Notes: generated by a model from the sequence alone, not told the origin. DNA of 64,000 nucleotides from a virus (IMGVR_UViG_3300032304_001168), one strand, 5' to 3'; positions 158 through 18,906 are shown, numbered from the stretch's first letter. Made by a program: numbers and translations.

Positions 158-2527
158 TTATTGTTTTACACTACTAATATTGTTTTCTTTAGATATTTTA
201 ACCACGTTGTCCGCCCAATTACTTACAAGTGGATTATGGGTGATGACAAATATCTTTTCAAAATAGTTCTTGATTTTAATAAAAAATTCACCAACCATAT
301 CCAAGTTCTCATTTGATATCTTTCCAAACACCTCGTCAAACACCACCAGGTTGGGTTTTGGTAATGAACTAATCTTACTTAACACCGCTCTCAATGCTAA
401 TGATGCTATGGTTCTCTCATAACCCGATCCTGATGACATAAGTTTCTCAACCTGGGTATTATTATCAATCATCAAAAATTCAACCTCATTCTTATCATTA
501 ATATTAATCTCCAATCTAAAATGACAACTATCTTCCAGCAACCTCTGTAACTCAGAATTCAACATTGGAATCATTGTTTTCATTATTGTCTTAGATATTC
601 CATTCTTTCCAAAGATTTCCAAATATAACTTATATATTTTTTCCTTTTCAGATTCTTCCTTTATTTTTTCAATTTTTTGAAGATTATCTTTAATCTTATC
701 TTTTAAACTATCAATTTGATAATTGTTAGAATCAATGATTCTCTGTACAGATACTTTTTCTCTATCCAATTCATCAATTCTCAGATTGGCTTTGATAAGT
801 TGGGTTTCAATTTTGTTATTGGTGGATATTTTATCTTGTAACAAATTGAATTTTTCCAACTTATCTTCCAACCCTTTGATTTTCATCTCATAACCCTCAA
901 TTGTAAGTTCATATTTTTCTTTGATAAGTTTGTTTTTCTCATACTCATCAAATTCTTTTTTCAATAGAACATACTTAGCTTCTCTGACTATTATATTAGA
1001 CATTAACCCCTCAAATTCAACTTTTTGACTATTATAATAGTCAAGTTCTGCTATCTTGTTTTGAGTTATTGATGCGGTTATTAATTCAATTCCACAATGT
1101 TCACATTTAATTCCCCCATCAACTGAAGACTTTAATTCTTCAATCGAATTGATTGTTTGTTCAACTTGAACAATCTTTTTATAGTATAGTTTGTGTTCAT
1201 CTTTTATCCAGTCGTGTTCTTGTTCCGAGTAAAACTCTGTAGGTTCAACTACTTTGAGTTCTTTTAATTGTCTTTCAACACTTTGTTTTTGGGTTTTTAT
1301 TCCCATAATTTCACTTTCAATACGTTCAGGAACAATATTGGAGATTTCAACATCAATATCCGTGTGTTTGGATTTTAATAATCCATCTCTATATTCTTGT
1401 CCTTTGATTATTCTGTTTTGAACATCAATAAGATTGTTTTGTTGGGTTATATTATCTGTTGTTAATTCTTGGATTCTTGAATTATAACCATCATTATCTG
1501 ATTTCAATTTCTCACTGGAATATACATTTGACAACATTGATTTTGAGAAGTCAGAATATATTTCTTTTGCAAGTTCTTCTTTCTTTTTGAGAAAGTCTAA
1601 CCCCATAAATTTTGATAATACTTGACCTCTTGCTGTTGGTTTGGAGTCAATCAAATCTTCAAGATTTGTTGCTGTTGTTAAGATTGTCATCAAGAAATCA
1701 TCTTTTGTTCCAATTGATGTTTTGATGAAATTCTCTGTTTCCCTCCTTTGTTCACCAGTAAAGTTTTGTAATGACCCATCGGATAATTTCTTATAAAAAT
1801 CCAATTCGGTTTTTACATTCCAAGTATCATCTTTCTTCTTCTTTCTTTCAATGTTTCTAATGATTACATATTCTTCCCCATCAATGATAATTTCACCTTT
1901 GACGTGGACTTTATCTTGAGTTGAGAATCTATTAAAAATTTCTTCAGCTTTTGTTGTCTTGGTGGTTTCATTGAAGAATAGGAATAACAATAGGTCAACG
2001 GTTAAAACTGTTTTCCCACCAAAATTTGCTGGATCTGATTCAACCACAGATATTCCATTACATTTTTCAAAATCTATTTTTTGATTTTGTCCATAAGATA
2101 AGAAATTGGAGAATTCAATATTTTTGATATACCATTTTTTGAATGGGGTAATATCTTCATCTGTCAATAATCTATTATCAACAATTCTATCTAGATTAAA
2201 GATTTCATCAGATAATTGATTTTGATTTTTGGAATCGAGATATGATTTAACCAATTCATATTGATAATTTTTATCCAAGATATTAAAGGAAACATCAACC
2301 GAGTGATTGGTTGTTTCTGTTATTTTTGTTTTGGTAATTACATTAACATTGGTTGAATTGTATTTTTTTTGGAAGTAATGTTTGATGCTCTTTATTTTTT
2401 CTTGTGTAAAGTTTTCAGCATAATCTTCCCATATTACCTGGATGTATGGATTATCAAACTTGGTAAAATCTATATCTTTAATCATATAATTGTAATTGTA
2501 TTCTATTGGTGGATTGAATAAATCCAT
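158..2527 (-). CDS. Rad50/SbcC/T4 gp46-like recombination ATPase
   Basis: IEFSNFLSY N-terminal motif, Walker A NFGGKT, long coiled coil with zinc-hook CEHC, signature SGSGYE, Walker B VVFDE, H-loop ITH; about 130-aa N-terminal extension. Confidence 0.93.
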   Translation of the reverse strand: MDLFNPPIEYNYNYMIKDIDFTKFDNPYIQVIWEDYAENFTQEKIKSIKHYFQKKYNSTNVNVITKTKITETTNHSVDVSFNILDKNYQYELVKSYLDSKNQNQLSDEIFNLDRIVDNRLLTDEDITPFKKWYIKNIEFSNFLSYGQNQKIDFEKCNGISVVESDPANFGGKTVLTVDLLLFLFFNETTKTTKAEEIFNRFSTQDKVHVKGEIIIDGEEYVIIRNIERKKKKDDTWNVKTELDFYKKLSDGSLQNFTGEQRRETENFIKTSIGTKDDFLMTILTTATNLEDLIDSKPTARGQVLSKFMGLDFLKKKEELAKEIYSDFSKSMLSNVYSSEKLKSDNDGYNSRIQELTTDNITQQNNLIDVQNRIIKGQEYRDGLLKSKHTDIDVEISNIVPERIESEIMGIKTQKQSVERQLKELKVVEPTEFYSEQEHDWIKDEHKLYYKKIVQVEQTINSIEELKSSVDGGIKCEHCGIELITASITQNKIAELDYYNSQKVEFEGLMSNIIVREAKYVLLKKEFDEYEKNKLIKEKYELTIEGYEMKIKGLEDKLEKFNLLQDKISTNNKIETQLIKANLRIDELDREKVSVQRIIDSNNYQIDSLKDKIKDNLQKIEKIKEESEKEKIYKLYLEIFGKNGISKTIMKTMIPMLNSELQRLLEDSCHFRLEININDKNEVEFLMIDNNTQVEKLMSSGSGYERTIASLALRAVLSKISSLPKPNLVVFDEVFGKISNENLDMVGEFFIKIKNYFEKIFVITHNPLVSNWADNVVKISKENNISSVKQ

Positions 2528-2608
2528 TGTGAATCTTTTAATTGATTTTGGGGGTGAGTTATATTGAGGTGTGTATATATTTTAGTTATGTGTAATAAAA
2601 AACTAAAA

Positions 2609-2830
2609 TTAAACTACCTCAACTTTATACAGTGTTCTATTACCTAAAATTTCTTTTGAAAAACTTTTAATCACATCATTATTTTTGTGTGAAATAGTTT
2701 CCACATCTGAATTATTCTTAAATTCTTCTAATGTTTTACTTAACCTGTTAAAGTAGATTTGTTCCCACAAAAATATACCAGTCCATTGTAAGTTTTTCAA
2801 AATAAAATCTGTTAATTTAGTTCTTTTCAT
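2609..2830 (-). CDS. hypothetical protein (cassette-borne)
   Basis: 73-aa ORF inside cassette 2585-3100. Confidence 0.65.
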   Translation of the reverse strand: MKRTKLTDFILKNLQWTGIFLWEQIYFNRLSKTLEEFKNNSDVETISHKNNDVIKSFSKEILGNRTLYKVEVV

Positions 2831-2848
2831 ATTGTTTAATTTTTAAAA

Positions 2849-3064
2849 TTATTTACCATATCTACTATTAACAAAAACTCTATTAGCTCCCGTTGTAAGT
2901 GATAATTGATTTTGTTGCTTCATCAATAGTTCAAATTGATTTTCTATTCTTAACCTGTCTGAATTACTTTTTAACATATTAATCAATTTATCCAACTCCA
3001 TATCTCTTTTTGAAGTTAGAAAACCAATTTGTTCCTTGTAATGTAGTTCGAGTTTTTGTTCCAT
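2849..3064 (-). CDS. hypothetical protein (cassette-borne)
   Basis: 71-aa ORF inside cassette 2585-3100. Confidence 0.65.
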   Translation of the reverse strand: MEQKLELHYKEQIGFLTSKRDMELDKLINMLKSNSDRLRIENQFELLMKQQNQLSLTTGANRVFVNSRYGK

Positions 3065-3097
3065 TTGTATAATTTTTTAGTTTTTTTACATACACAT

Positions 3098-3174
3098 AAC
3101 AACAAATATAAGAAATAAATTTTGATTTATCTATTTTTTATAGGTAAAATTTACTTCTCATATTTGCAACCGTT
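3098..3174. repeat. attC-like hairpin site (array 1)
   Basis: AAC-AA-CAAATATAAGAAATAAATTTT...AAAATTTACTTCTCATATTTG-CAACC-GTT; 21-bp arms with 2 mismatches. Confidence 0.75.
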
Positions 3175-3436
3175 AGCGGTAATGTTGAAAAGACAGCGTA
3201 TCGCCAGCATTGAACCTACCAACGCTATCCACAAACCAAGTTCCATACATATTCAAATCCATTTTATCAATAGGCTCGACTAAGTAAAGACTAGTTCCTT
3301 TTGTTTTGTTAGGTTTAATTCTTGTTACTACAAATTTTGATTGGCTATTAGGGAATTTGGTTTCTTCACCACAAGAAGAAAGTACTACAGCTAAAAACAC
3401 ATAGGCAAAAAAGCCGTTCAGTTTTCTATTTACCAT
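3173..3436 (-). CDS. putative lipoprotein (cassette-borne; cassette truncated on its right side)
   Basis: signal peptide with lipobox-like VLSSC; stop TAA lies within the CGCTAAC core box. Confidence 0.7.
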   Translation of the reverse strand: MVNRKLNGFFAYVFLAVVLSSCGEETKFPNSQSKFVVTRIKPNKTKGTSLYLVEPIDKMDLNMYGTWFVDSVGRFNAGDTLSFQHYR

Positions 3437-13170: not shown

Positions 13171-13366
13171 TTATATCTTCAAATGAATTTATTGCAAATT
13201 TAAGAAAAGGTTTTGGATTATCCAAATCAACAAATGAATATTCATCCTTAACCACATCATAAATTCCAAATCCGTGATTCTTAATTGACTCCCCATAGTT
13301 CTGTTGGATTGTTGAACCCACTTGAATTATTGGTATTTTTCTTTTTATTTTAATTTTTCTATCCAC
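13139..13366 (-). CDS. Mre11/SbcD/gp47-like nuclease, C-terminal fragment
   Basis: IIQVGSTIQQNYGE..HGFGIYD matches the GS-x-QQ-x-GE segment that follows GDIH in this family. Confidence 0.8.
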   Translation of the reverse strand: MDRKIKIKRKIPIIQVGSTIQQNYGESIKNHGFGIYDVVKDEYSFVDLDNPKPFLKFAINSFEDIIDGKEKLTNA

Positions 13367-14211
13367 TCTGTTATGTTTTTATATTTTTTTTGATTTTTGG
13401 GTAAGAAAAAATTCATTTCATATTTTAAATTATTTTCTTTACAAAATTTTATAGTTTCTTGTATTTGGGCTTTAATTCTTTCCTCTTCTAATATGAGTCC
13501 TTTAATTTCTTCTAATACTTTTTTTCCATCCTTGTACAAAATTAAAAAATCAGGTAAATAATTTCTTTTTAATCCTCCAAAATCATATTTGATAGATATT
13601 TTGTGTTTTTTTGTCCAAAATATAACTTTTTCATCCTCATTAAGTTCTATCATTCTTTTTTGCTCCCAAGATGAATGGTAAAATTCATTTTCATTTGTTG
13701 TAGTGTTTAATATAAACCCTCTTTTATGATTACCATTTCTTTCATTTTCACTTTCTTTTATTAATCTTTCAATATTTTTTAAAGAAATATTTTCCCTAAA
13801 TTCTTTAGTATGCCAATCCATAGAACCATTAGATAATCGGTGTCTGTCAAAAAAAATTAAATGTTTCTCTAATCTTTCTTTTTTTCTCCAACTATCTTTA
13901 ACTTTTTCTTTTATCTTTTTTTTAGCATCATCAGTATGTTTAAACATGCCAGGTTTCCTATTACCAAAATTACCATTTTTTTCCCCTAATTGTGAGAATT
14001 TTTGCCACTCAACTTGACACAATCTACTACAAAATTTTTTTTTGGAGTTAGGTAATTTTATAAAATTATTTGTACATCCACTAAATTCACAATTTACTTC
14101 AATTTTGATTTGTTTCTTTTCACATTGACCACAAATTTTAGAGCAATATTTTTGTTTTTCCCTTCTAGGTTTGAAATCTAAATTACAACAATCGCATTTT
14201 TTATTTTCCAT
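13345..14211 (-). CDS. homing endonuclease (Cys-rich Zn motifs, NUMOD3-like, TnsA-N/PD-(D/E)XK-like C-terminus)
   Basis: GEKNGNFG..KHTDDAKKKI; YHSSWE...YLPDFLI...EEIKG; likely start MENKKC at 14211 (ORF track 14247). Confidence 0.8.
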   Translation of the reverse strand: MENKKCDCCNLDFKPRREKQKYCSKICGQCEKKQIKIEVNCEFSGCTNNFIKLPNSKKKFCSRLCQVEWQKFSQLGEKNGNFGNRKPGMFKHTDDAKKKIKEKVKDSWRKKERLEKHLIFFDRHRLSNGSMDWHTKEFRENISLKNIERLIKESENERNGNHKRGFILNTTTNENEFYHSSWEQKRMIELNEDEKVIFWTKKHKISIKYDFGGLKRNYLPDFLILYKDGKKVLEEIKGLILEEERIKAQIQETIKFCKENNLKYEMNFFLPKNQKKYKNITEWIEKLK

Positions 14212-14253
14212 ATTTATATTTTTAAGTATAAATATAAATATCACCAAAAAACA

Positions 14254-14898
14254 CTAAATCACAATTTCCCAACCTTTTTTCAAATAAAAATCTAAATCTT
14301 TTTCATCAATTTCTATTTCTCTTTCTAAATAAATTGTTTGTCTGCGATGTATATCCCCACATAGAACGATATCACATCCCTCAAATTTACTCACCTCATA
14401 TCCTGTTTCAAACTTATATCCAATGTCTGTATATAACCCTATAATAGGTCCGTGAAACAATCCAATTTTAAGGTTATTAGATTTCTCAATTGTTGGGGGA
14501 ATATTGTGTTCAAATAAAGAATATACAACCCAATCAATATTCTCATCAACATATACACCTCTATCTTTGTAATAGACAATGTTATCATTATTCATTGATT
14601 CAATGATGGGGGTTAATGTATCCAATCTTGATAAATTGTTCTCAAGCATATCATGATTTCCAACAATGATTATTGTTTTTGCAATCTTGGAACATTTATC
14701 TAATGTCCATCTAACCATTTCAATAAGTTCTGGGCTGACTTGGTTTTTACTATGGACTAGGTCGCCACTGAATACCAGTCTATCAGGTTTAATCTCTTTG
14801 AATTGATTAAACATATCAATCAATATTGATTTGTATAAATCGTGGTCTTTTATTAATCTCAAATGTAAATCAGAGAAGTGACAGATTGTTTTTATCAT
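14254..14898 (-). CDS. Mre11/SbcD/gp47-like metallophosphoesterase nuclease, N-terminal fragment
   Basis: motifs HFSDLH, GDLVH, GNHD, FHG, GDIH. Confidence 0.9.
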   Translation of the reverse strand: MIKTICHFSDLHLRLIKDHDLYKSILIDMFNQFKEIKPDRLVFSGDLVHSKNQVSPELIEMVRWTLDKCSKIAKTIIIVGNHDMLENNLSRLDTLTPIIESMNNDNIVYYKDRGVYVDENIDWVVYSLFEHNIPPTIEKSNNLKIGLFHGPIIGLYTDIGYKFETGYEVSKFEGCDIVLCGDIHRRQTIYLEREIEIDEKDLDFYLKKGWEIVI

Positions 14899-14915
14899 TT
14901 CAGTTTTTGTTTTGA
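14866..14915. repeat. 50-bp direct repeat, copy 1 (mre11 5' end); copy 2 at 15085-15134
   Basis: identical TAAATCAGAGAAGTGACAGATTG...CAGTTTTTGTTTTGA. Confidence 0.9.
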
Positions 14916-15044
14916 TTTAATAATATTCACCAATTCTTCTTTTATTTCGTTTTGAATATCCTCATCAATATTTCCCCACCAACCATCAAAACCACCTCTA
15001 TCACATAGAGCATCAATAATTTCATTTACAATTTCTTTTTCCAT
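14895..15044 (-). CDS. 49-aa hypothetical protein
   Basis: MEKEIVNEIIDALCDRGGFDGWWGNIDEDIQ...; stop overlaps the mre11 ATG (ATGA). Confidence 0.65.
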   Translation of the reverse strand: MEKEIVNEIIDALCDRGGFDGWWGNIDEDIQNEIKEELVNIIKSKQKLK

Positions 15045-15054
15045 TTTATTTATT

Positions 15055-15086
15055 TTTTTCTTCCATCAAATACAACAATCATACTA
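15055..15086. repeat. 32-bp direct repeat of the Dam-like methyltransferase 3' end; other copy at 18235-18266
   Basis: identical TTTTTCTTCCATCAAATACAACAATCATACTA. Confidence 0.9.
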
Positions 15087-15231
15087 AATCAGAGAAGTGA
15101 CAGATTGTTTTTATCATTTCAGTTTTTGTTTTGAATTTCGTAATAGTTTCCCATTTTTACCTCTTAAATCATTGATTATTTGAGGTTTTAAAATAGGTGT
15201 TGATATATTATAGTTATACTCAATTAAAAAA

Positions 15232-15378
15232 TTATTTTGAGTTATATAATATATTCCATTCAGTATATGTATTTGATAATAATTCTTCTATTGTAATCCC
15301 AAATCTTATACAATCACCTAAACATATTTTGTAAAAATTCACACTTCTTTCGTTTATTATATATTCTGAAAATGTCAT
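15232..15378 (-). CDS. 48-aa hypothetical protein (cassette 15213-15423)
   Basis: MTFSEYIINERSVNFYKICLGDC...NSK*; flanked by GTTATACTCAATTAAAAAATTATTTT / AAAATAATTTTTTAACTAAGTATAAC. Confidence 0.5.
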   Translation of the reverse strand: MTFSEYIINERSVNFYKICLGDCIRFGITIEELLSNTYTEWNILYNSK

Positions 15379-15420
15379 ATTTGTATTTTTAATTTGTAAA
15401 ATAATTTTTTAACTAAGTAT

Positions 15421-15466
15421 AACAAAGTGTAAAAAACATTAAAACTATTTTTTACACTCAACCGTT
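15421..15466. repeat. attC-like site (short loop)
   Basis: AAC-AA-AGTGTAAAAAA..CATTAAAACTA..TTTTTTACACT-CAACC-GTT. Confidence 0.75.
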
Positions 15467-15474
15467 ATGTGTAA

Positions 15475-15792
15475 TTAAACAGAGAAACCCTCGTTAATCA
15501 AATATTTTGTTATTGAATGATGGTTGCTCAATGGTCTGTGTTCAATTGAAATATGTCCTTTGTTGTTTTTCCAAGTCCAAGTATGGTCAACTTCTAATTC
15601 TGAATTTACAGATAAACCATATTCAATTGTATGATAGTTATCAGATACAACACAATCTTCTACTTTAAATACAGCAATAATAAAATCTTTTTCAGGTGTC
15701 CATTCAACTTTACCAGCATTACAAGGTTTTCCGATAATCAAAGAGTATATCTGATTAATGTTTTCTATTGTTAAATCTTTTATCGTTTTCAT
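15475..15792 (-). CDS. hypothetical protein (cassette 15464-15823)
   Basis: likely start MKTIKDLT at 15792; arms GTTATGTGTA / TACACATAAC. Confidence 0.7.
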   Translation of the reverse strand: MKTIKDLTIENINQIYSLIIGKPCNAGKVEWTPEKDFIIAVFKVEDCVVSDNYHTIEYGLSVNSELEVDHTWTWKNNKGHISIEHRPLSNHHSITKYLINEGFSV

Positions 15793-15820
15793 AAATTTTT
15801 CGTTTAAATTAACTACACAT

Positions 15821-15906
15821 AACAAGGTGTATATGTAATTTTTTTACAAAGGTACGAATAAGTTTTGACATTTCCAAATAAAAAACTACATATACACCCA
15901 TACGTT
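15821..15906. repeat. attC-like site with a promoter in its loop; near-identical to 16522-16606
   Basis: AAC-AA-GGTGTATATGTAATTTTTT...AAAAAACTACATATACACC-CATAC-GTT. Confidence 0.8.
15847..15878 (-). promoter_or_regulatory. Bacteroidota primary-sigma promoter (-33 TTTG / -7 TAnnTTTG)
   Basis: minus strand TTTG-N20-TACCTTTG pointing into the cassette gene. Confidence 0.75.
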
Positions 15907-15922
15907 ATAAGCAATATTATTT

Positions 15923-16165
15923 TTATTTTGAGTATCTATTTTTAAAATCCTCAAATGCTTCTAAAATTGTGTTTCCCACACCATAGTTCACATGTTCCCA
16001 TTCTTCTTTCATAAAGTGATGTGGGTCATATTGCCACTCTTCGTTTCCTTCAAGTGAGTTTACACAATCAGCATCACAACATGTTTCTACAATAGCAAAT
16101 TTACCGTGTCTCATGTGAACTATGGTCATTGGGTAAATGTCTTCAATTTTGTTTATATTCTTCAT
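15923..16165 (-). CDS. hypothetical protein (cassette 15904-16214)
   Basis: arms GTTATAAGCAATATTATTTTTATTTT / AAAATAAAAATAATACAGCTTATAAC. Confidence 0.7.
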   Translation of the reverse strand: MKNINKIEDIYPMTIVHMRHGKFAIVETCCDADCVNSLEGNEEWQYDPHHFMKEEWEHVNYGVGNTILEAFEDFKNRYSK

Positions 16166-16211
16166 AATTTTAAGTTTTTTAAATCGGTAAAATAAAAATA
16201 ATACAGCTTAT

Positions 16212-16257
16212 AACAACAAATATATTGCATTAAAACGACAATATATTTGCAACCGTT
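16212..16257. repeat. attC-like site (short loop)
   Basis: AAC-AA-CAAATATATTG-CATTAAAACGA-CAATATATTTG-CAACC-GTT. Confidence 0.8.
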
Positions 16258-16278
16258 ATGTGTAATAAAAAATAACTA

Positions 16279-16482
16279 TCAAACCTCGTTTCCATCATCA
16301 AAGATTGTAAAACACGATTTGTCTGATAAAGTCACCTTATATCCAACATATCCACCATCTGCAAAAATGTGCAAGTCTGTTATCCATTCATCAGTTGCAC
16401 CTTTTTCATCTAATTTGCTTTGTATTTTCACTCTTGCTGCATCGTGTTTTACAAAGTCTAATGTTATTCTATTTGCCCACAT
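16279..16482 (-). CDS. hypothetical protein (cassette 16255-16524)
   Basis: arms GTTATGTGTAATAAAAAATAACT / AGTTATTTTTTACATACACATAAC. Confidence 0.7.
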   Translation of the reverse strand: MWANRITLDFVKHDAARVKIQSKLDEKGATDEWITDLHIFADGGYVGYKVTLSDKSCFTIFDDGNEV

Positions 16483-16521
16483 ATTATTAAGTTTAGTTTA
16501 AGTTATTTTTTACATACACAT

Positions 16522-16606
16522 AACAAGGTGTATATGTAATTTTTTACAAAAGTACGAATAAGTTTTGACATTTCCAAATAAAAAACTACATATACACCCA
16601 ACCGTT
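16522..16606. repeat. attC-like site with a promoter in its loop
   Basis: near-identical to 15821-15906; minus-strand TTTG-N20-TACTTTTG at 16547-16578. Confidence 0.8.
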
Positions 16607-16634
16607 AGCACCAATACTACGAAAGTGCTTCGAT

Positions 16635-17252
16635 TTAAATTTCGTTTGGATTTTCATAGATTATTACTGGGATTTTTTTAATTTTTAATCTTTTTGCAGC
16701 TTCCCATCTATGATGTCCATCTAATATACCAAAATCATAATCAAGTAATATTGGTGGTAATTCATCACCATTTTTTAATTTCTTAATTATGTTCAATATA
16801 TTTTGTTCTTCTTGTTTTTCAGTTCCATATATTCTCGAATCATTGGTATCAATATATTTCAATTTACTCAAATATCTCCCAATCTCAATACCTCTCGTAT
16901 CACTCCACAAATATTTTTGTTTATTAACCAAATCTGTGTCAGTATTATACACCAAATCTGGTTTCTTTTCTTTTGGTTGTTTTAATTTTGGTTCAATTTT
17001 TATACCTTTTTTGGTTTCAACAAAATTGAAAAGATTTATAATATCACTTGGATTATCTTCACCAAATATTTTGCTAAATTGTTTATTATTATGCTCAACG
17101 GCACGATTCACATCATTGTATGCAGTCTCCAAATCTTTATAGTATCTATCTTTAAAAGATGAATACCACCCATACATTTTTTTTACATCTAAATCTTGGC
17201 TTTCATTAAGATATTCTCTTATTGTAGTTGCTATAAATTTTCTCAATTCCAT
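16635..17252 (-). CDS. ParB/Srx-like domain protein (cassette 16604-17320)
   Basis: LPPILLD..GILDGHHRWEAAKRLKIKKIPVII; N-terminal MELRKFIATTIREYLNE; arms GTTAGCACCA / TGGTGCTAAC. Confidence 0.8.
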   Translation of the reverse strand: MELRKFIATTIREYLNESQDLDVKKMYGWYSSFKDRYYKDLETAYNDVNRAVEHNNKQFSKIFGEDNPSDIINLFNFVETKKGIKIEPKLKQPKEKKPDLVYNTDTDLVNKQKYLWSDTRGIEIGRYLSKLKYIDTNDSRIYGTEKQEEQNILNIIKKLKNGDELPPILLDYDFGILDGHHRWEAAKRLKIKKIPVIIYENPNEI

Positions 17253-17317
17253 GTTCTTTTACTTTATATATAAATATTCCAAAATTAAATTTTTGCTAAA
17301 CAAACCGTACTGGTGCT

Positions 17318-17403
17318 AACAAGGTGTATAAGAAAGTTTGCTATCAATATTTGTGGTAATTTGAGAGTTCATCTAAGCAAACCTTCTAATACACCCAACC
17401 GTT
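17318..17403. repeat. attC-like site
   Basis: AAC-AA-GGTGTATAAGAAAGTTTGCT...AGCAAACCTTCTAATACACC-CAACC-GTT. Confidence 0.78.
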
Positions 17404-17419
17404 AGCAGTAATATTGTGG

Positions 17420-17659
17420 CTACTTCCCAATTGGTCTATTACAAGTTGCACAGATATAACTACCATTCATTAAATAACATTGAGATTGCTGACAGCCACA
17501 ATACATACTGCTAACATCGGCTATACGCAAGTTTTTTGCTTCCGTTAGTCGGTTAATAACATTGTTTGCCTCTATCAACATTTCAATCAATTTGTCTTTT
17601 TCTATCATTTGATACATCTCTACTTTTTCAGAGTGTGTCATTTCAATTACTTGCATCAT
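17420..17659 (-). CDS. hypothetical protein starting inside an attC-like loop, with a Cys-rich C-terminus
   Basis: reads through the site arm and core as LRIADV-SSMYCGC. Confidence 0.7.
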   Translation of the reverse strand: MMQVIEMTHSEKVEMYQMIEKDKLIEMLIEANNVINRLTEAKNLRIADVSSMYCGCQQSQCYLMNGSYICATCNRPIGK

Positions 17660-17718
17660 ATATTTTAATTTTAGTGTTTCAAATTCGCAAAAAACCTGAC
17701 GTATAGCCGAGAACCGTT
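17513..17718. repeat. attC-like site with a long coding loop
   Basis: AAC-A-TCGGCTATACGCAAGTTTTTTGC...GCAAAAAACCTGACGTATAGCCGA-GAACC-GTT. Confidence 0.72.
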
Positions 17719-17980
17719 ATAGATAATAAGCATCCAACACACTTTCAATATAACCTATTGATATGTGTATTTTAACTAAATCATCATATGTTTTTATACG
17801 TTCAAAAAATTCCTCTTTATTCAACCACTCCACATAGAAACCACCTTCATGTAAATTCATACAATATCCATCATATTCCGTATAAAAACTATCTAACAGC
17901 TTACTATCTATAACATCAGATATATGTAATTTTTCATTACTCTTATCTAAGTTTTGTTCTAAATTTTTATCTTCTTTCAT
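17717..17980 (-). CDS. hypothetical protein starting inside an attC-like loop
   Basis: reads through the site as LHISDV-IDSK; stop TAA lies in the TATAAC core. Confidence 0.7.
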   Translation of the reverse strand: MKEDKNLEQNLDKSNEKLHISDVIDSKLLDSFYTEYDGYCMNLHEGGFYVEWLNKEEFFERIKTYDDLVKIHISIGYIESVLDAYYL

Positions 17981-18023
17981 CTTATTAAATTTTGTGTTAA
18001 AACTACATATATCTGTAACCGTT
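17912..18023. repeat. attC-like site with a coding loop
   Basis: AAC-AT-CAGATATATGTAATTTT...AAAACTACATATATCTG-TAACC-GTT. Confidence 0.75.
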
Positions 18024-18031
18024 ATAAAACA

Positions 18032-18682
18032 TTATAAACGACCACCCCACTCAAATCTAACATATTCAACTTTAAAATCAACATCGTAAATCTCTTTTAG
18101 TAAATTTACAGCATATTGTTCATAACTACAATTCTTATCATATTCTAAACGATGTTGATTATCGTTTACTTCCATTGTCATATGTTCACCTTCGAAACTA
18201 TGACTTTCAATAAATTTGATTTCCATATTTTTAATTTTTCTTCCATCAAATACAACAATCATACTATCTTTTGTACCACTTTGTACTTTACCCTTTGAAT
18301 TTACAGGATAATAAAAATTACCATCATTGTCAACTTTCCCAAATTTAATCCTCCCCCTTACAAATTCAATTTCAGTCGCATTTGGTTTAATATAATCGTG
18401 AAATAACTTTGTGGAGGTGGAAACTGGTATCAAAAATACACAAACTTTTCCCTTCTTCATCTCCTCAATCCCTTTCTTAATAAAGGCCTCCTTTAACTTC
18501 TGACTATATGGGGGATTTATGAAAGTTGACATCCCCCATTCAATATTTAAACCATCAATATCAACATCCTTTTCATTATATGGACAAGGGTCAAAATCAA
18601 ATTTAAACCTCTTATTTAACTCCTCATAAAATTCTGGGGGTGTTGCATAATTATCATCATTATTAATGTGAATCTTTTTCAT
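18032..18682 (-). CDS. phage Dam-like DNA N6-adenine methyltransferase fused in frame to an unrelated about 64-aa C-terminal ORF
   Basis: YATP, FDFDPC, NPPY, FVRGRIKF; after SMIVVFDGRK the frame continues into MEIKFIESHSF... Confidence 0.85.
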   Translation of the reverse strand: MKKIHINNDDNYATPPEFYEELNKRFKFDFDPCPYNEKDVDIDGLNIEWGMSTFINPPYSQKLKEAFIKKGIEEMKKGKVCVFLIPVSTSTKLFHDYIKPNATEIEFVRGRIKFGKVDNDGNFYYPVNSKGKVQSGTKDSMIVVFDGRKIKNMEIKFIESHSFEGEHMTMEVNDNQHRLEYDKNCSYEQYAVNLLKEIYDVDFKVEYVRFEWGGRL

Positions 18683-18906
18683 TAGAACAATTCAAAATCT
18701 TTGTTTATGTGACCACAATCGTCACAACGATATGTTGGGAATGGTACTAATGTGTCCTCCAAACTACCAGTAAATAGTTTTGATACCTTTTTAATCATAA
18801 CCACTTCTTTGAAGTACTTTGAACCACATTCTTCACAAGTAACGGTGGGCTGTTCTTTTAAATCAATCTTTGGTAAACTCTTTTCCGTATTAATTAAATT
18901 ATCCAT
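18682..18906 (-). CDS. Zn-ribbon protein
   Basis: CEECG...CDDCGH. Confidence 0.75.
   Translation of the reverse strand: MDNLINTEKSLPKIDLKEQPTVTCEECGSKYFKEVVMIKKVSKLFTGSLEDTLVPFPTYRCDDCGHINKDFELF

Follow-up and report, generated by a model that had tools for sequence, protein, structure and literature searches.

The window analysed here, the whole 64,000-nt stretch of the virus IMGVR_UViG_3300032304_001168, belongs to a large Bacteroidota-type phage and harbours an array of seven small cassettes at 15213-18020, each carrying one minus-strand ORF. The array is preceded by an attI-like box and followed by a terminal R' arm without partner and a Dam-type methyltransferase gene. A second array with one cassette is present at 2568-3183, also headed by an attI-like box (Table 1). 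The block 14898-18678 is absent from most close relatives. However, L179, a 95%-identical relative, shares the platform but holds five unrelated cassettes (L numbers denote the related sequences compared).

Table 1. Features of the two cassette arrays in the window (R', GTTA-side arm; R'', TAAC-side arm)
Coordinates	Strand	Feature	Arms and ORFs	Inner hairpin and spacer	Remarks
15119..15154	-	Probable remnant of the platform's recombinase gene (inferred)	Start codon plus about 7 codons, fused to a second copy of the mre11 5' region		ATG 58 nt from the GTTA of the attI-like box; junction shared with L179
15196..15212	+	attI-like box GGTGTTGATATATTATA			Directly before the first GTTA
15213..15463	+	Cassette 1	R' 15213-15238; 48-aa ORF 15232..15378 (minus); R'' 15398-15423	15426-15458, loop CATTAAAACTA; spacer CAACC	Arms 26 nt, 92% complementary
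15464..15903	+	Cassette 2	R' 15464-15478; ORF 15475..15792 (minus); R'' 15809-15823	15826-15898; spacer CATAC	Loop holds TTTG-N20-TACCTTTG on the minus strand
15904..16254	+	Cassette 3	R' 15904-15929; 80-aa ORF 15923..16165 (minus); R'' 16189-16214	16217-16249, loop CATTAAAACGA; spacer CAACC	26-nt arms with 24 matches
16255..16603	+	Cassette 4	R' 16255-16284; 67-aa ORF 16279..16482 (minus); R'' 16496-16524	16527-16598, promoter-type loop; spacer CAACC	27 matches with a one-base bulge; inner stem has its own A/G position after 12 bp
16604..17400	+	Cassette 5	R' 16604-16617; 205-aa ParB-N-like ORF 16635..17252 (minus); R'' 17307-17320	17323-17395; spacer CAACC	Homologous cassettes in L124, L127 and L008 carry different arms, changed on both sides
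17401..17715	+	Cassette 6	R' 17401-17421; 79-aa ORF 17420..17659 (minus); R'' 17494-17515	17517-17710, 172-nt loop holding the ORF start; spacer GAACC	Body only 115 nt; 20 matches with a bulge
17716..18020	+	Cassette 7	R' 17716-17731; 87-aa ORF 17717..17980 (minus); R'' 17899-17914	17917-18015, loop holding the ORF start; spacer TAACC	
18021..18682	-	Terminal R' (GTTATAAAACAT, 18021-18032, + strand) and Dam-type methyltransferase gene (18032..18682)	No partner arm found		Distal end of the inserted block
2568..3183	+	Second, one-cassette array	attI-like GGTGTGTATATATTTTA 2568-2584; cassette 2585-3171; R' 2585-2608; two small minus-strand ORFs; R'' 3075-3100; terminal R' 3172-3183	3103-3166; spacer CAACC	

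Pairing of the cassette ends and geometry of the sites

A sequence-only reading of this region had reported that the two ends of each cassette are complementary over about 10-26 bp, with a recurrent mismatch or bulge about 10 nt from the GTT and an asymmetric central spacer. This observation is confirmed, and both pairs given as examples, in cassettes 3 and 6, are present exactly. All eight cassettes in the window have complementary own ends of 13-27 matched bases (median 21.5). Non-cognate pairs within the window have a median of 5, with the exception of three cassettes that share one arm type, GTTATGTGTAAT. We extended the comparison to 123 non-redundant cassettes of the same family from the window, viral contigs, MAG contigs and a Fluviicola chromosome. 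Own ends give a median of 15 matches and 81% reach 12 or more, while the two arms of one in-array site give a median of 5, as do random non-cognate ends. The pairing is therefore far above what AT-rich DNA of this kind gives by chance.

Per position, own ends are paired in about 80% of cassettes at positions 5-8 and in 73-78% at positions 12-14, with all four base-pair types, whereas non-cognate ends are paired in 8-26% at positions 6-14. Covariation in the outer arms of homologous cassettes, whose absence would have spoken against the earlier reading, was found, since 29 of 36 arm changes are compensatory, although this count was made on cassettes pre-selected for paired arms.

The recurrent mismatch is sharper than first described. 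Position 11 of the GTTA-side arm is A in 123 of 123 cassettes and is paired in 1%. It faces C in 94 of 97 well-paired cassettes (A against G in 94/97), that is, an A.C mismatch on one strand and a T.G wobble on the other. An extra T sits on the TAAC-side arm in 25 cassettes, and differences cluster at positions 9-11. The same A.C cap follows the inner stem, with A at +15 in 102/104 sites and C at -18 in 52/57 long-loop sites. Among 192 unique sites, the spacer is 2 nt after AAC and 5 nt before GTT in 104, 1/5 in 36 and 3/6 in 23. Inner stems are uninterrupted for 11-13 bp, and the extrahelical bases that classical attC sites have in the L'' arm of the bottom strand are not present in their first 11 bp. 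The unpaired features lie elsewhere, namely a 3-nt bulge at the spacer and the A.C / T.G positions after the inner stem and in the outer arm. AAC and GTT are invariant by construction of the site finder; position 4 is A in 118/123, while position 5 is T in 73/123, which is not a purine, so the RRRY pattern of the classical RYYYAAC / GTTRRRY boxes is only partly kept.

One premise of the sequence-only reading needs correction, namely that canonical attC sites have only 7-bp R boxes. In five classical class 1 cassettes from one public record, the own ends pair over 8-12 nt, and the contrast with a 7-bp core was thus overstated. The extra length is a matter of degree, and part of it is ordinary. 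The real departures are the mismatch, the spacer, the bulge-free inner stem and, judged from related phages, the enzyme.

The circularised cassette is predicted to fold into one long imperfect hairpin. The bottom strand is the more stable one in 111 of 115 reconstituted sites, by a mean of 3.6 kcal/mol, and a site with its own R' is 7.3 kcal/mol more stable than the same site with the R' of the next cassette. The 115-nt unit of cassette 6 folds with paired ends on both strands (z -4.5 and -3.9). Arm length falls as arm GC rises (rho -0.70, p 5e-15), and median arm energies stay between -13 and -17 kcal/mol across GC classes, which suggests selection for hairpin stability. However, this does not account for a sharp second peak of arm length at exactly 26 nt. 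The asymmetry follows site polarity and not gene direction, since genes are antisense to the site in viral contigs (72 against 4) and sense in the Fluviicola chromosome (7 against 0).

Exchange point, recombinase and related systems

The exchange point is bracketed between -2 and +4 of the G of GTT, within CC|GTTA, so that everything from position 5 of the R' arm onward travels with the cassette to its right, as in integrons, where the cassette boundary is at G|TT. No recombinase was found in the window with tblastn. Nonetheless, seven related viral contigs carry a 265-aa Xer-like recombinase next to an attI-like box. The conserved box GGTGT(T/G)GATATA...TA|GTTA lies about 55 nt from the recombinase start in five phage contigs (L002, L009, L012, L037 and L107) and next to a truncated recombinase in the Fluviicola chromosome, and the same box heads both arrays in the window. 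In the window the recombinase gene appears deleted, as the recombinase ATG of relatives lies 51-60 nt from the box and the intergenic sequence is similar to that before the remnant at 15119-15154. The attI-like role of the box is inferred from its sequence and position.

The recombinases of relatives score 158-210 bits on the IntI model TIGR02249, below its cut-off of 265, and match it in two pieces that skip model positions of about 180-239; they lack the IntI-specific insertion in the catalytic domain. The archaeal XerA model (XerA_Arch, NF040815) scores higher, with 194-224 bits. In a comparison with PDB sequences, XerA (4a8e) gives 123 bits and IntI4 gives 94 bits in two stretches.

Similar to classical integrons, the system comprises arrays of mostly one-gene cassettes, folded imperfect-hairpin sites with AAC and GTT, exchange at or next to G|TT, strand-asymmetric unpaired features, and an attI-like box next to a tyrosine recombinase gene. 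In contrast to them, the outer stem is 14-26 nt with the A.C / T.G position at 11, and the spacer is 2/5 nt instead of 5-6 nt on each arm (PMC5027507); class 1 control sites show 5/6. Short sites share the conserved 11-nt loop CATTAAAACGA, and in phages the genes run antisense to the site, with promoters or gene starts inside the site loop.

Clusters of attC sites lacking an integrase (CALINs) were reported in virulent phages, including Polaribacter phage P12002L (Qi et al. 2023, PMC9892861). Its site P12002L_attC1 (L121:3084-3140) belongs to the family described here, with TAAC AA, stem, CATTAAAACGA, stem, TAGCC and GTTA-N5-AAT. It lies in a phage of a Bacteroidota host, and its cassettes carry methyltransferases. 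That study treated the sites as ordinary attC sites, found attC1 by HattCI only, and obtained no recombinants of attC1 with IntI1. In the sections consulted, the cognate long arms, the mismatch, the spacer asymmetry and a phage-encoded recombinase were not described. A search of the phage collection with one site gave mostly low-complexity noise apart from P12002L. Literature searches for a Xer-like integron system in Bacteroidota or their phages, and for the conserved motifs as text, found no description of it, and IntegronFinder 2.0 reports only one complete integron in Bacteroidetes. A search of Rfam returned only a chance match below threshold. A first, loose pattern scan of viral sequences returned 120 stretches, of which only 31 have a real stem and the rest are chance matches.

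Regarding Xer recombinases and their dif-type sites (XerC/D, archaeal XerA), XerA is the best sequence match of the recombinase. From the cleavage point outward, the R arm up to the conserved (A/C)AT is 11 nt, which is the arm length of dif sites. However, dif sites are double-stranded, single-copy chromosomal sites used to resolve chromosome dimers, while the sites here are many, hairpin-forming and covarying, and bound mobile cassettes.

Interpretation and alternative explanations

We consider it likely that the stretch is an array of seven one-gene cassettes of an integron-like system found in Bacteroidota and their phages. Read on the + strand, each site consists of an R'' arm ending in TAAC, a 2-nt spacer (AA), an 11-13 bp inner hairpin, a 5-nt spacer (CAACC) and an R' arm starting with GTTA. 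In this view, the two ends of a cassette are the two halves of the outer stem of its own site, and in the excised circle, or in single-stranded DNA, the R'' arm, inner hairpin and R' arm would form one long imperfect hairpin. The outer stem comprises 9-10 perfect pairs, an invariant A facing C at position 11, often with an extra T beside it, and a further stretch of pairs ending near position 15, or sharply at 26. On the bottom strand, the A.C position and the two spacer mismatches all become G.T wobbles; that strand folds better and is probably the one recombined.

Our data demonstrate the cognate pairing, the covariation, the exchange point, the strand asymmetry, the adjacency of the recombinase in relatives and the turnover of cassettes. 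On the other hand, mobility is inferred from comparisons only. It is also an inference that long arms are kept because AT-rich stems need more pairs to reach a stability threshold, and that the array in the window, without its own recombinase gene, is serviced in trans. Likewise inferred is that the A/C position and the 3-nt bulge take the place of the extrahelical bases of classical attC sites, for a Xer-like recombinase lacking the IntI insertion which reads those bases. The interpretation given in the sequence-only reading is thus partly supported: a non-canonical site, a predicted long hairpin and, in relatives, a neighbouring Xer-like enzyme that lacks the IntI-specific insertion agree with it, whereas cassette inversion is not supported.

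Integrons are the textbook case of recombination at folded single-stranded DNA, and all known ones depend on IntI and its insertion reading extrahelical bases. The sites described here keep the logic of an integron, with hairpin sites, exchange at GTT and cognate cassette ends, but place the strand-discriminating features differently and pair with a Xer-like enzyme, which offers a natural experiment on how single-strand site recognition can be built. The long arms, which scale with AT content, give a testable rule for how much stem stability such recombination needs. The system also explains part of the gene turnover between nearly identical large phages of Bacteroidota, and the current integron finders appear not to see it, although HattCI called one family member an attC. 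It is about as likely as not that the two-helix site, with each helix capped by an A.C (top strand) or T.G (bottom strand) position and joined by a 3-nt bulge, is the recognition code of a separate Xer-derived family of cassette recombinases. This would be a second integron-type system, shared by Bacteroidota chromosomes and their phages and working without the IntI insertion, which phages would use to swap promoter-bearing accessory genes, even at arrays that have lost their own enzyme.

Among the alternatives, a role of the arms mainly in RNA is unlikely but cannot be excluded. The ends of each cassette transcript could pair into a panhandle that protects the mRNA, ends transcription or makes an RNase III site, with the recombination signature being secondary. 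In phages the better-folding strand, on which the mismatches become G.U wobbles, is also the mRNA-sense strand, and promoters and gene starts lie inside the site loops, so transcripts would contain both arms. However, the same A/G asymmetry is kept relative to site polarity in chromosomal cassettes, where the genes run the other way and the mRNA would carry A.C mismatches. Besides, the arms are linked to a conserved exchange point and to a recombinase with an attI box, and empty cassettes with no gene keep the stem.

It is very unlikely that these are ordinary attC sites of a classical integron remnant (a CALIN) serviced by an IntI integrase, with the extra pairing being chance in AT-rich DNA or the normal reach of the R box. 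The AAC and GTT triplets, the cassette boundary at GTT, the HattCI call and the pairing in class 1 cassettes are in agreement with this explanation. Nevertheless, the cognate-specific pairing, the 2/5-nt spacer, the first 11 bp of the inner stem without extrahelical bases, the neighbouring recombinases in relatives, which lack the IntI insertion and score below the IntI cut-offs, and the failure of IntI1 on P12002L_attC1 argue against it.

Equally unlikely is that the hairpins are regulatory stem-loops (a promoter plus a terminator), like the promoter-early stem-loops of T4-type phages, between which genes are shuffled by ordinary homologous recombination. Those are mobile regulatory cassettes with promoters between small accessory genes in a variable phage region, and no dedicated recombinase, conserved AAC/GTT exchange point or cognate arms are known for them. 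Two inner hairpins in the window carry a host-type promoter motif in the loop, read from the sequence by its resemblance to the Bacteroidota -33/-7 consensus, and the region is a variable early-gene block that differs between close relatives. However, the hairpin stems covary and share little sequence, offering little homology for recombination, the exchange point is fixed to a few bases, a dedicated tyrosine recombinase and an attI-like box accompany the arrays, and the same sites fill bacterial chromosomal arrays.

An invertible or transposable unit (including a MITE-like element) bounded by the 13-27 nt inverted repeats, flipped by a DNA invertase or moved by a transposase that reads the repeats, was rejected, as the arms differ between cassettes beyond GTTA, so that no single protein could read them by sequence, none of 36 homologous cassette bodies is inverted relative to site polarity by blastn and none of 12 by tblastx, breakpoints fall at CC|GTTA, outside the repeats, and no transposase or invertase lies next to the arrays. 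We also considered that the long AT-rich arms double as -7 promoter boxes, but dropped this idea, because some arms contain TAnnTTTG and many do not.

Organisation of the array and pairing of the cassette ends

The window has 29% GC and encodes a primase, an exonuclease, ribonucleotide reductase, baseplate and virion proteins, Rad50/Mre11-type nucleases, thymidylate synthase and a Dam-type methyltransferase. It is part of a large phage. In the main array the + strand reads seven times as a TAAC-ended arm, 1-2 nt (mostly AA), an 11-13 bp perfect stem with a loop of 11 to 172 nt, 5 nt (mostly CAACC), and a GTTA-started arm. All genes lie on the minus strand. Two long loops contain TTTG-N20-TACCTTTG on the minus strand, which fits the Bacteroidota -33/-7 promoter consensus. 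Two other loops contain the start codons of ORFs that read through the TAAC arm into the cassette body. An eighth cassette of the same build was also found in the window. Apart from a ParB-N-like protein and the flanking Dam methyltransferase, the cassette proteins match no family.

Complementary ends had been proposed from the sequence-only reading, and this observation was confirmed, as both of its example pairs are exact. Every cassette in the window has complementary own ends of 13-27 matched bases. The 115-nt unit folds with its ends paired on either strand, with z-scores of -4.5 and -3.9, and none of 200 shuffles folds as well. Three cassettes with unrelated bodies share one arm type (GTTATGTGTAAT...). 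Thus, arms come in recurring types rather than being unique to each gene.

Structural scans of viral contigs and of bacterial and archaeal genomes found the same kind of site in many low-GC viral contigs, and in genomes of Bacteroidota, including Flavobacteriales, Chitinophagales, Saprospiraceae and Fluviicola among others. Two contigs binned as a Methanolobus MAG (L124 and L127) carry arrays of 9-10 sites of this Bacteroidota/phage type, and are probably mis-binned phage contigs. Many short sites share the 11-nt loop CATTAAAACGA between stems that covary. From 216 sites we took 143 cassettes, 123 of them non-redundant. Own ends match over a median of 15 bases, and 81% reach 12 or more, while the two arms of one in-array site give a median of 5, as do random non-cognate ends. 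Per position, own ends are paired in about 80% of cassettes at positions 5-8 and in 73-78% at positions 12-14, with all four base-pair types present, whereas non-cognate ends are paired in 8-26% at positions 6-14. Among homologous cassettes whose arms differ, a set pre-selected for paired arms, 29 of 36 changed positions are changed on both sides so that pairing is kept. The pairing is therefore a property of the family and not of chance.

Coordinates of the features in the window and in related contigs
Feature	Location	Strand
Array of seven cassettes	window 15213-18020	+
Eighth cassette	window 2585-3171	+
Long loops with TTTG-N20-TACCTTTG	window 15826-15898; 16527-16598	motif on minus
115-nt unit with paired ends	window 17401-17515	
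Cassettes sharing one arm type	window, from 15464, 16255 and 2585	
ParB-N-like ORF	window 16635..17252	minus
First attI-like box	window 15196-15212	
Second attI-like box	window 2568-2584	
Region of the second box and the start codon of the Rad50/SbcC-like gene	window 2525-2584	
Rad50/SbcC-like gene	window 158..2527	
Probable recombinase remnant (inferred)	window 15154-15119	minus
Inserted block	window 14898-18678	
ORF with homologue in relatives, beside the block	window 18682..18906	
Duplicated 5' region of mre11	window 14868-14917 = 15089-15137	
Piece of the Dam gene interior between the copies	window 15055-15087 = 18237-18269	
Insertion in the mre11-type gene	window 13340-14323	
300-aa ORF with TnsA-like endonuclease domain	window 13345..14247	
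Empty cassette, relative L179	9582-9610	reverse
Empty cassette, relative L052	from 1125	
Chromosomal recombinase, L155	1492-2628	minus
Chromosomal recombinase, L176	904-2037	plus

Conserved mismatch, strand asymmetry and point of exchange

Position 11 of the GTTA-side arm is A in all 123 cassettes, although this was not required by the site finder. In 94 of 97 well-paired cassettes the partner arm has the base that makes A face C. An extra T on the TAAC-side arm occurs in 25 cassettes, and the other differences cluster at positions 9-10. On the complementary strand, position 11 is a T.G wobble. The same holds for the central spacer, where AA facing C..C on the + strand becomes two G.T wobbles around a 3-nt bulge on the other strand. 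The same cap also follows the inner stem, as the 15th base after AAC is A in 102 of 104 sites, and faces a C in 52 of 57 long-loop sites. The inner stem possesses conserved bases T7, A8, W9 and A10 after AAC, at or near invariance for T7, A8 and A10. This is a likely sequence-specific contact within an otherwise covarying stem, and the attI-like box contains a similar GTATATA or GATATA. Empty cassettes of 29 nt were found in the relatives L179 and L052, made only of a 9-bp GTTA/TAAC stem around the conserved loop and reading GTTA-N5-CATTAAAACGA-N5-TAAC. Thus, the conserved (A/C)AT and AC(G/W) of the arms are the ends of the conserved loop. The empty cassettes suggest that cargo sits in what was once the loop of a plain hairpin.

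Each site was rebuilt as it would be in a circular cassette (TAAC-side arm, inner hairpin, own GTTA-side arm) and folded with DNA parameters. The bottom strand, which is the minus strand in the window, is more stable in 111 of 115 sites, by a mean of 3.6 kcal/mol. A site with its own arm is 7.3 kcal/mol more stable than the same site with the arm of the next cassette, as it stands in the array. Arm length falls as arm GC rises (Spearman -0.70, p 5e-15). Arms with under 15% GC have a median of 26 nt, and arms above 30% GC have 15 nt, while median duplex energies stay between -13 and -17 kcal/mol. This supports selection for a stability threshold. However, arm lengths are bimodal, with a broad peak at 14-16 nt and a sharp second peak at exactly 26 nt, where pairing drops from 16% at position 26 to 2% at position 27, and this sharp edge is not explained by stability.

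Sites in different contigs that share the left part but have different right neighbours first differ at positions +5 to +7, counting the G of GTT as +1. Sites that share the right part but differ on the left first differ at -2 to -4. Therefore, these comparisons place the exchange within CC|GTTA, as at G|TT in integrons. The inner hairpin belongs to the cassette on its left on the + strand. In this phage the hairpin is thereby placed upstream of the gene, which fits the promoters and gene starts found in the loops.

Genes run antisense to site polarity in viral contigs (72 against 4) and in the window (6 of 6), and sense in the Fluviicola chromosomal array (7 against 0). The A/G asymmetry keeps to site polarity in both, which argues that it serves DNA recombination rather than mRNA folding. 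No homologous cassette body was found in the opposite orientation relative to site polarity, neither among 36 compared by blastn nor among 12 compared by tblastx.

Associated recombinase and comparison with classical integron sites

In the Fluviicola chromosome a long array ends at an attI-like box, ...GGTTGGGTATATAAATAA|GTTAGCGGTAAT, directly after a 5'-truncated tyrosine recombinase gene. Full-length relatives of about 378 aa are common in the sampled class, and several are followed by the same kind of box and sites. The tally of these relatives includes two unpublished genomes (G100 and G186), on which no claim rests. Seven viral contigs encode a 265-aa homologue (40-47% identity), whose start codon lies about 55 nt from the box GGTGT(T/G)GATATA...TA|GTTA and which is co-oriented with the cassette genes. 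Chromosomal recombinases of this family, in contigs L155 and L176, carry an extra N-terminal region of about 100 aa that the 265-aa phage versions lack. All these proteins score best on archaeal XerA. They match the integron-integrase models in two pieces that skip the IntI-specific insertion, and score below the curated cut-offs.

The window possesses the same box at two positions. Nonetheless, the search with tblastn revealed no recombinase in the window. A start codon with about seven codons, at the right distance from the first box and fused to a copy of the mre11 5' region, looks like the remnant of a deleted recombinase gene. The second box lies 57 nt from the start codon of the Rad50/SbcC-like gene, which is the distance at which relatives have the recombinase start. 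Cognate pairing, covariation, the strand asymmetry, the exchange point, cassette turnover and the adjacency of a recombinase in relatives are shown by the sequence comparisons, whereas the deletion of the recombinase gene and the function of the attI-like box are inferred.

Classical sites are described with RYYYAAC/GTTRRRY boxes, spacers of 5-6 nt on each arm and extrahelical bases in L'' (PMC5027507). A class 1 array in a public phage P1 record shows exactly that geometry. Its five cassettes have cognate ends pairing over 8-12 nt. Therefore, pairing beyond the 7 nt that the sequence-only reading took as the classical limit is not new in itself. The difference here is one of degree (14-26 nt), together with the mismatch, the spacer, the bulge-free inner stem and the enzyme. 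Qi et al. 2023 (PMC9892861) listed a cluster of attC sites in Polaribacter phage P12002L. Their attC1 is a member of the present family, and was the one site that IntI1 did not recombine. IntegronFinder 2.0 reports a single complete integron in Bacteroidetes, and no description of this system was found in the literature that could be searched. The system is a variant of the integron principle. The interpretation offered by the sequence-only reading is partly supported, being right on the non-canonical site, the long hairpin and the distinct recombinase, and wrong, or at least unsupported, on cassette inversion.

Cassette turnover and local rearrangements

Most close relatives (88-94% identity in Mre11) have nothing between mre11 and the homologue of ORF 18682..18906, and window 14898-18678 is therefore an inserted block. 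One relative, L179, shares the flanks at about 95% identity, the remnant junction, the attI-like box and the distal Dam gene. However, its five cassettes are unrelated to the seven of the window, and each has its own cognate arms. Therefore, cassettes have been exchanged after the inferred loss of the local recombinase, presumably in trans.

The 5' region of mre11 is present twice in the window, and a 33-nt piece of the Dam gene interior sits between the copies. L179 possesses only one copy, joined directly to the recombinase remnant, so the window carries an extra local rearrangement of about 190 bp. The mre11-type gene is also interrupted by a 300-aa ORF with a TnsA-like endonuclease domain. 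Close relatives, such as contig L181, lack exactly this segment, so it is an insertion into the gene.
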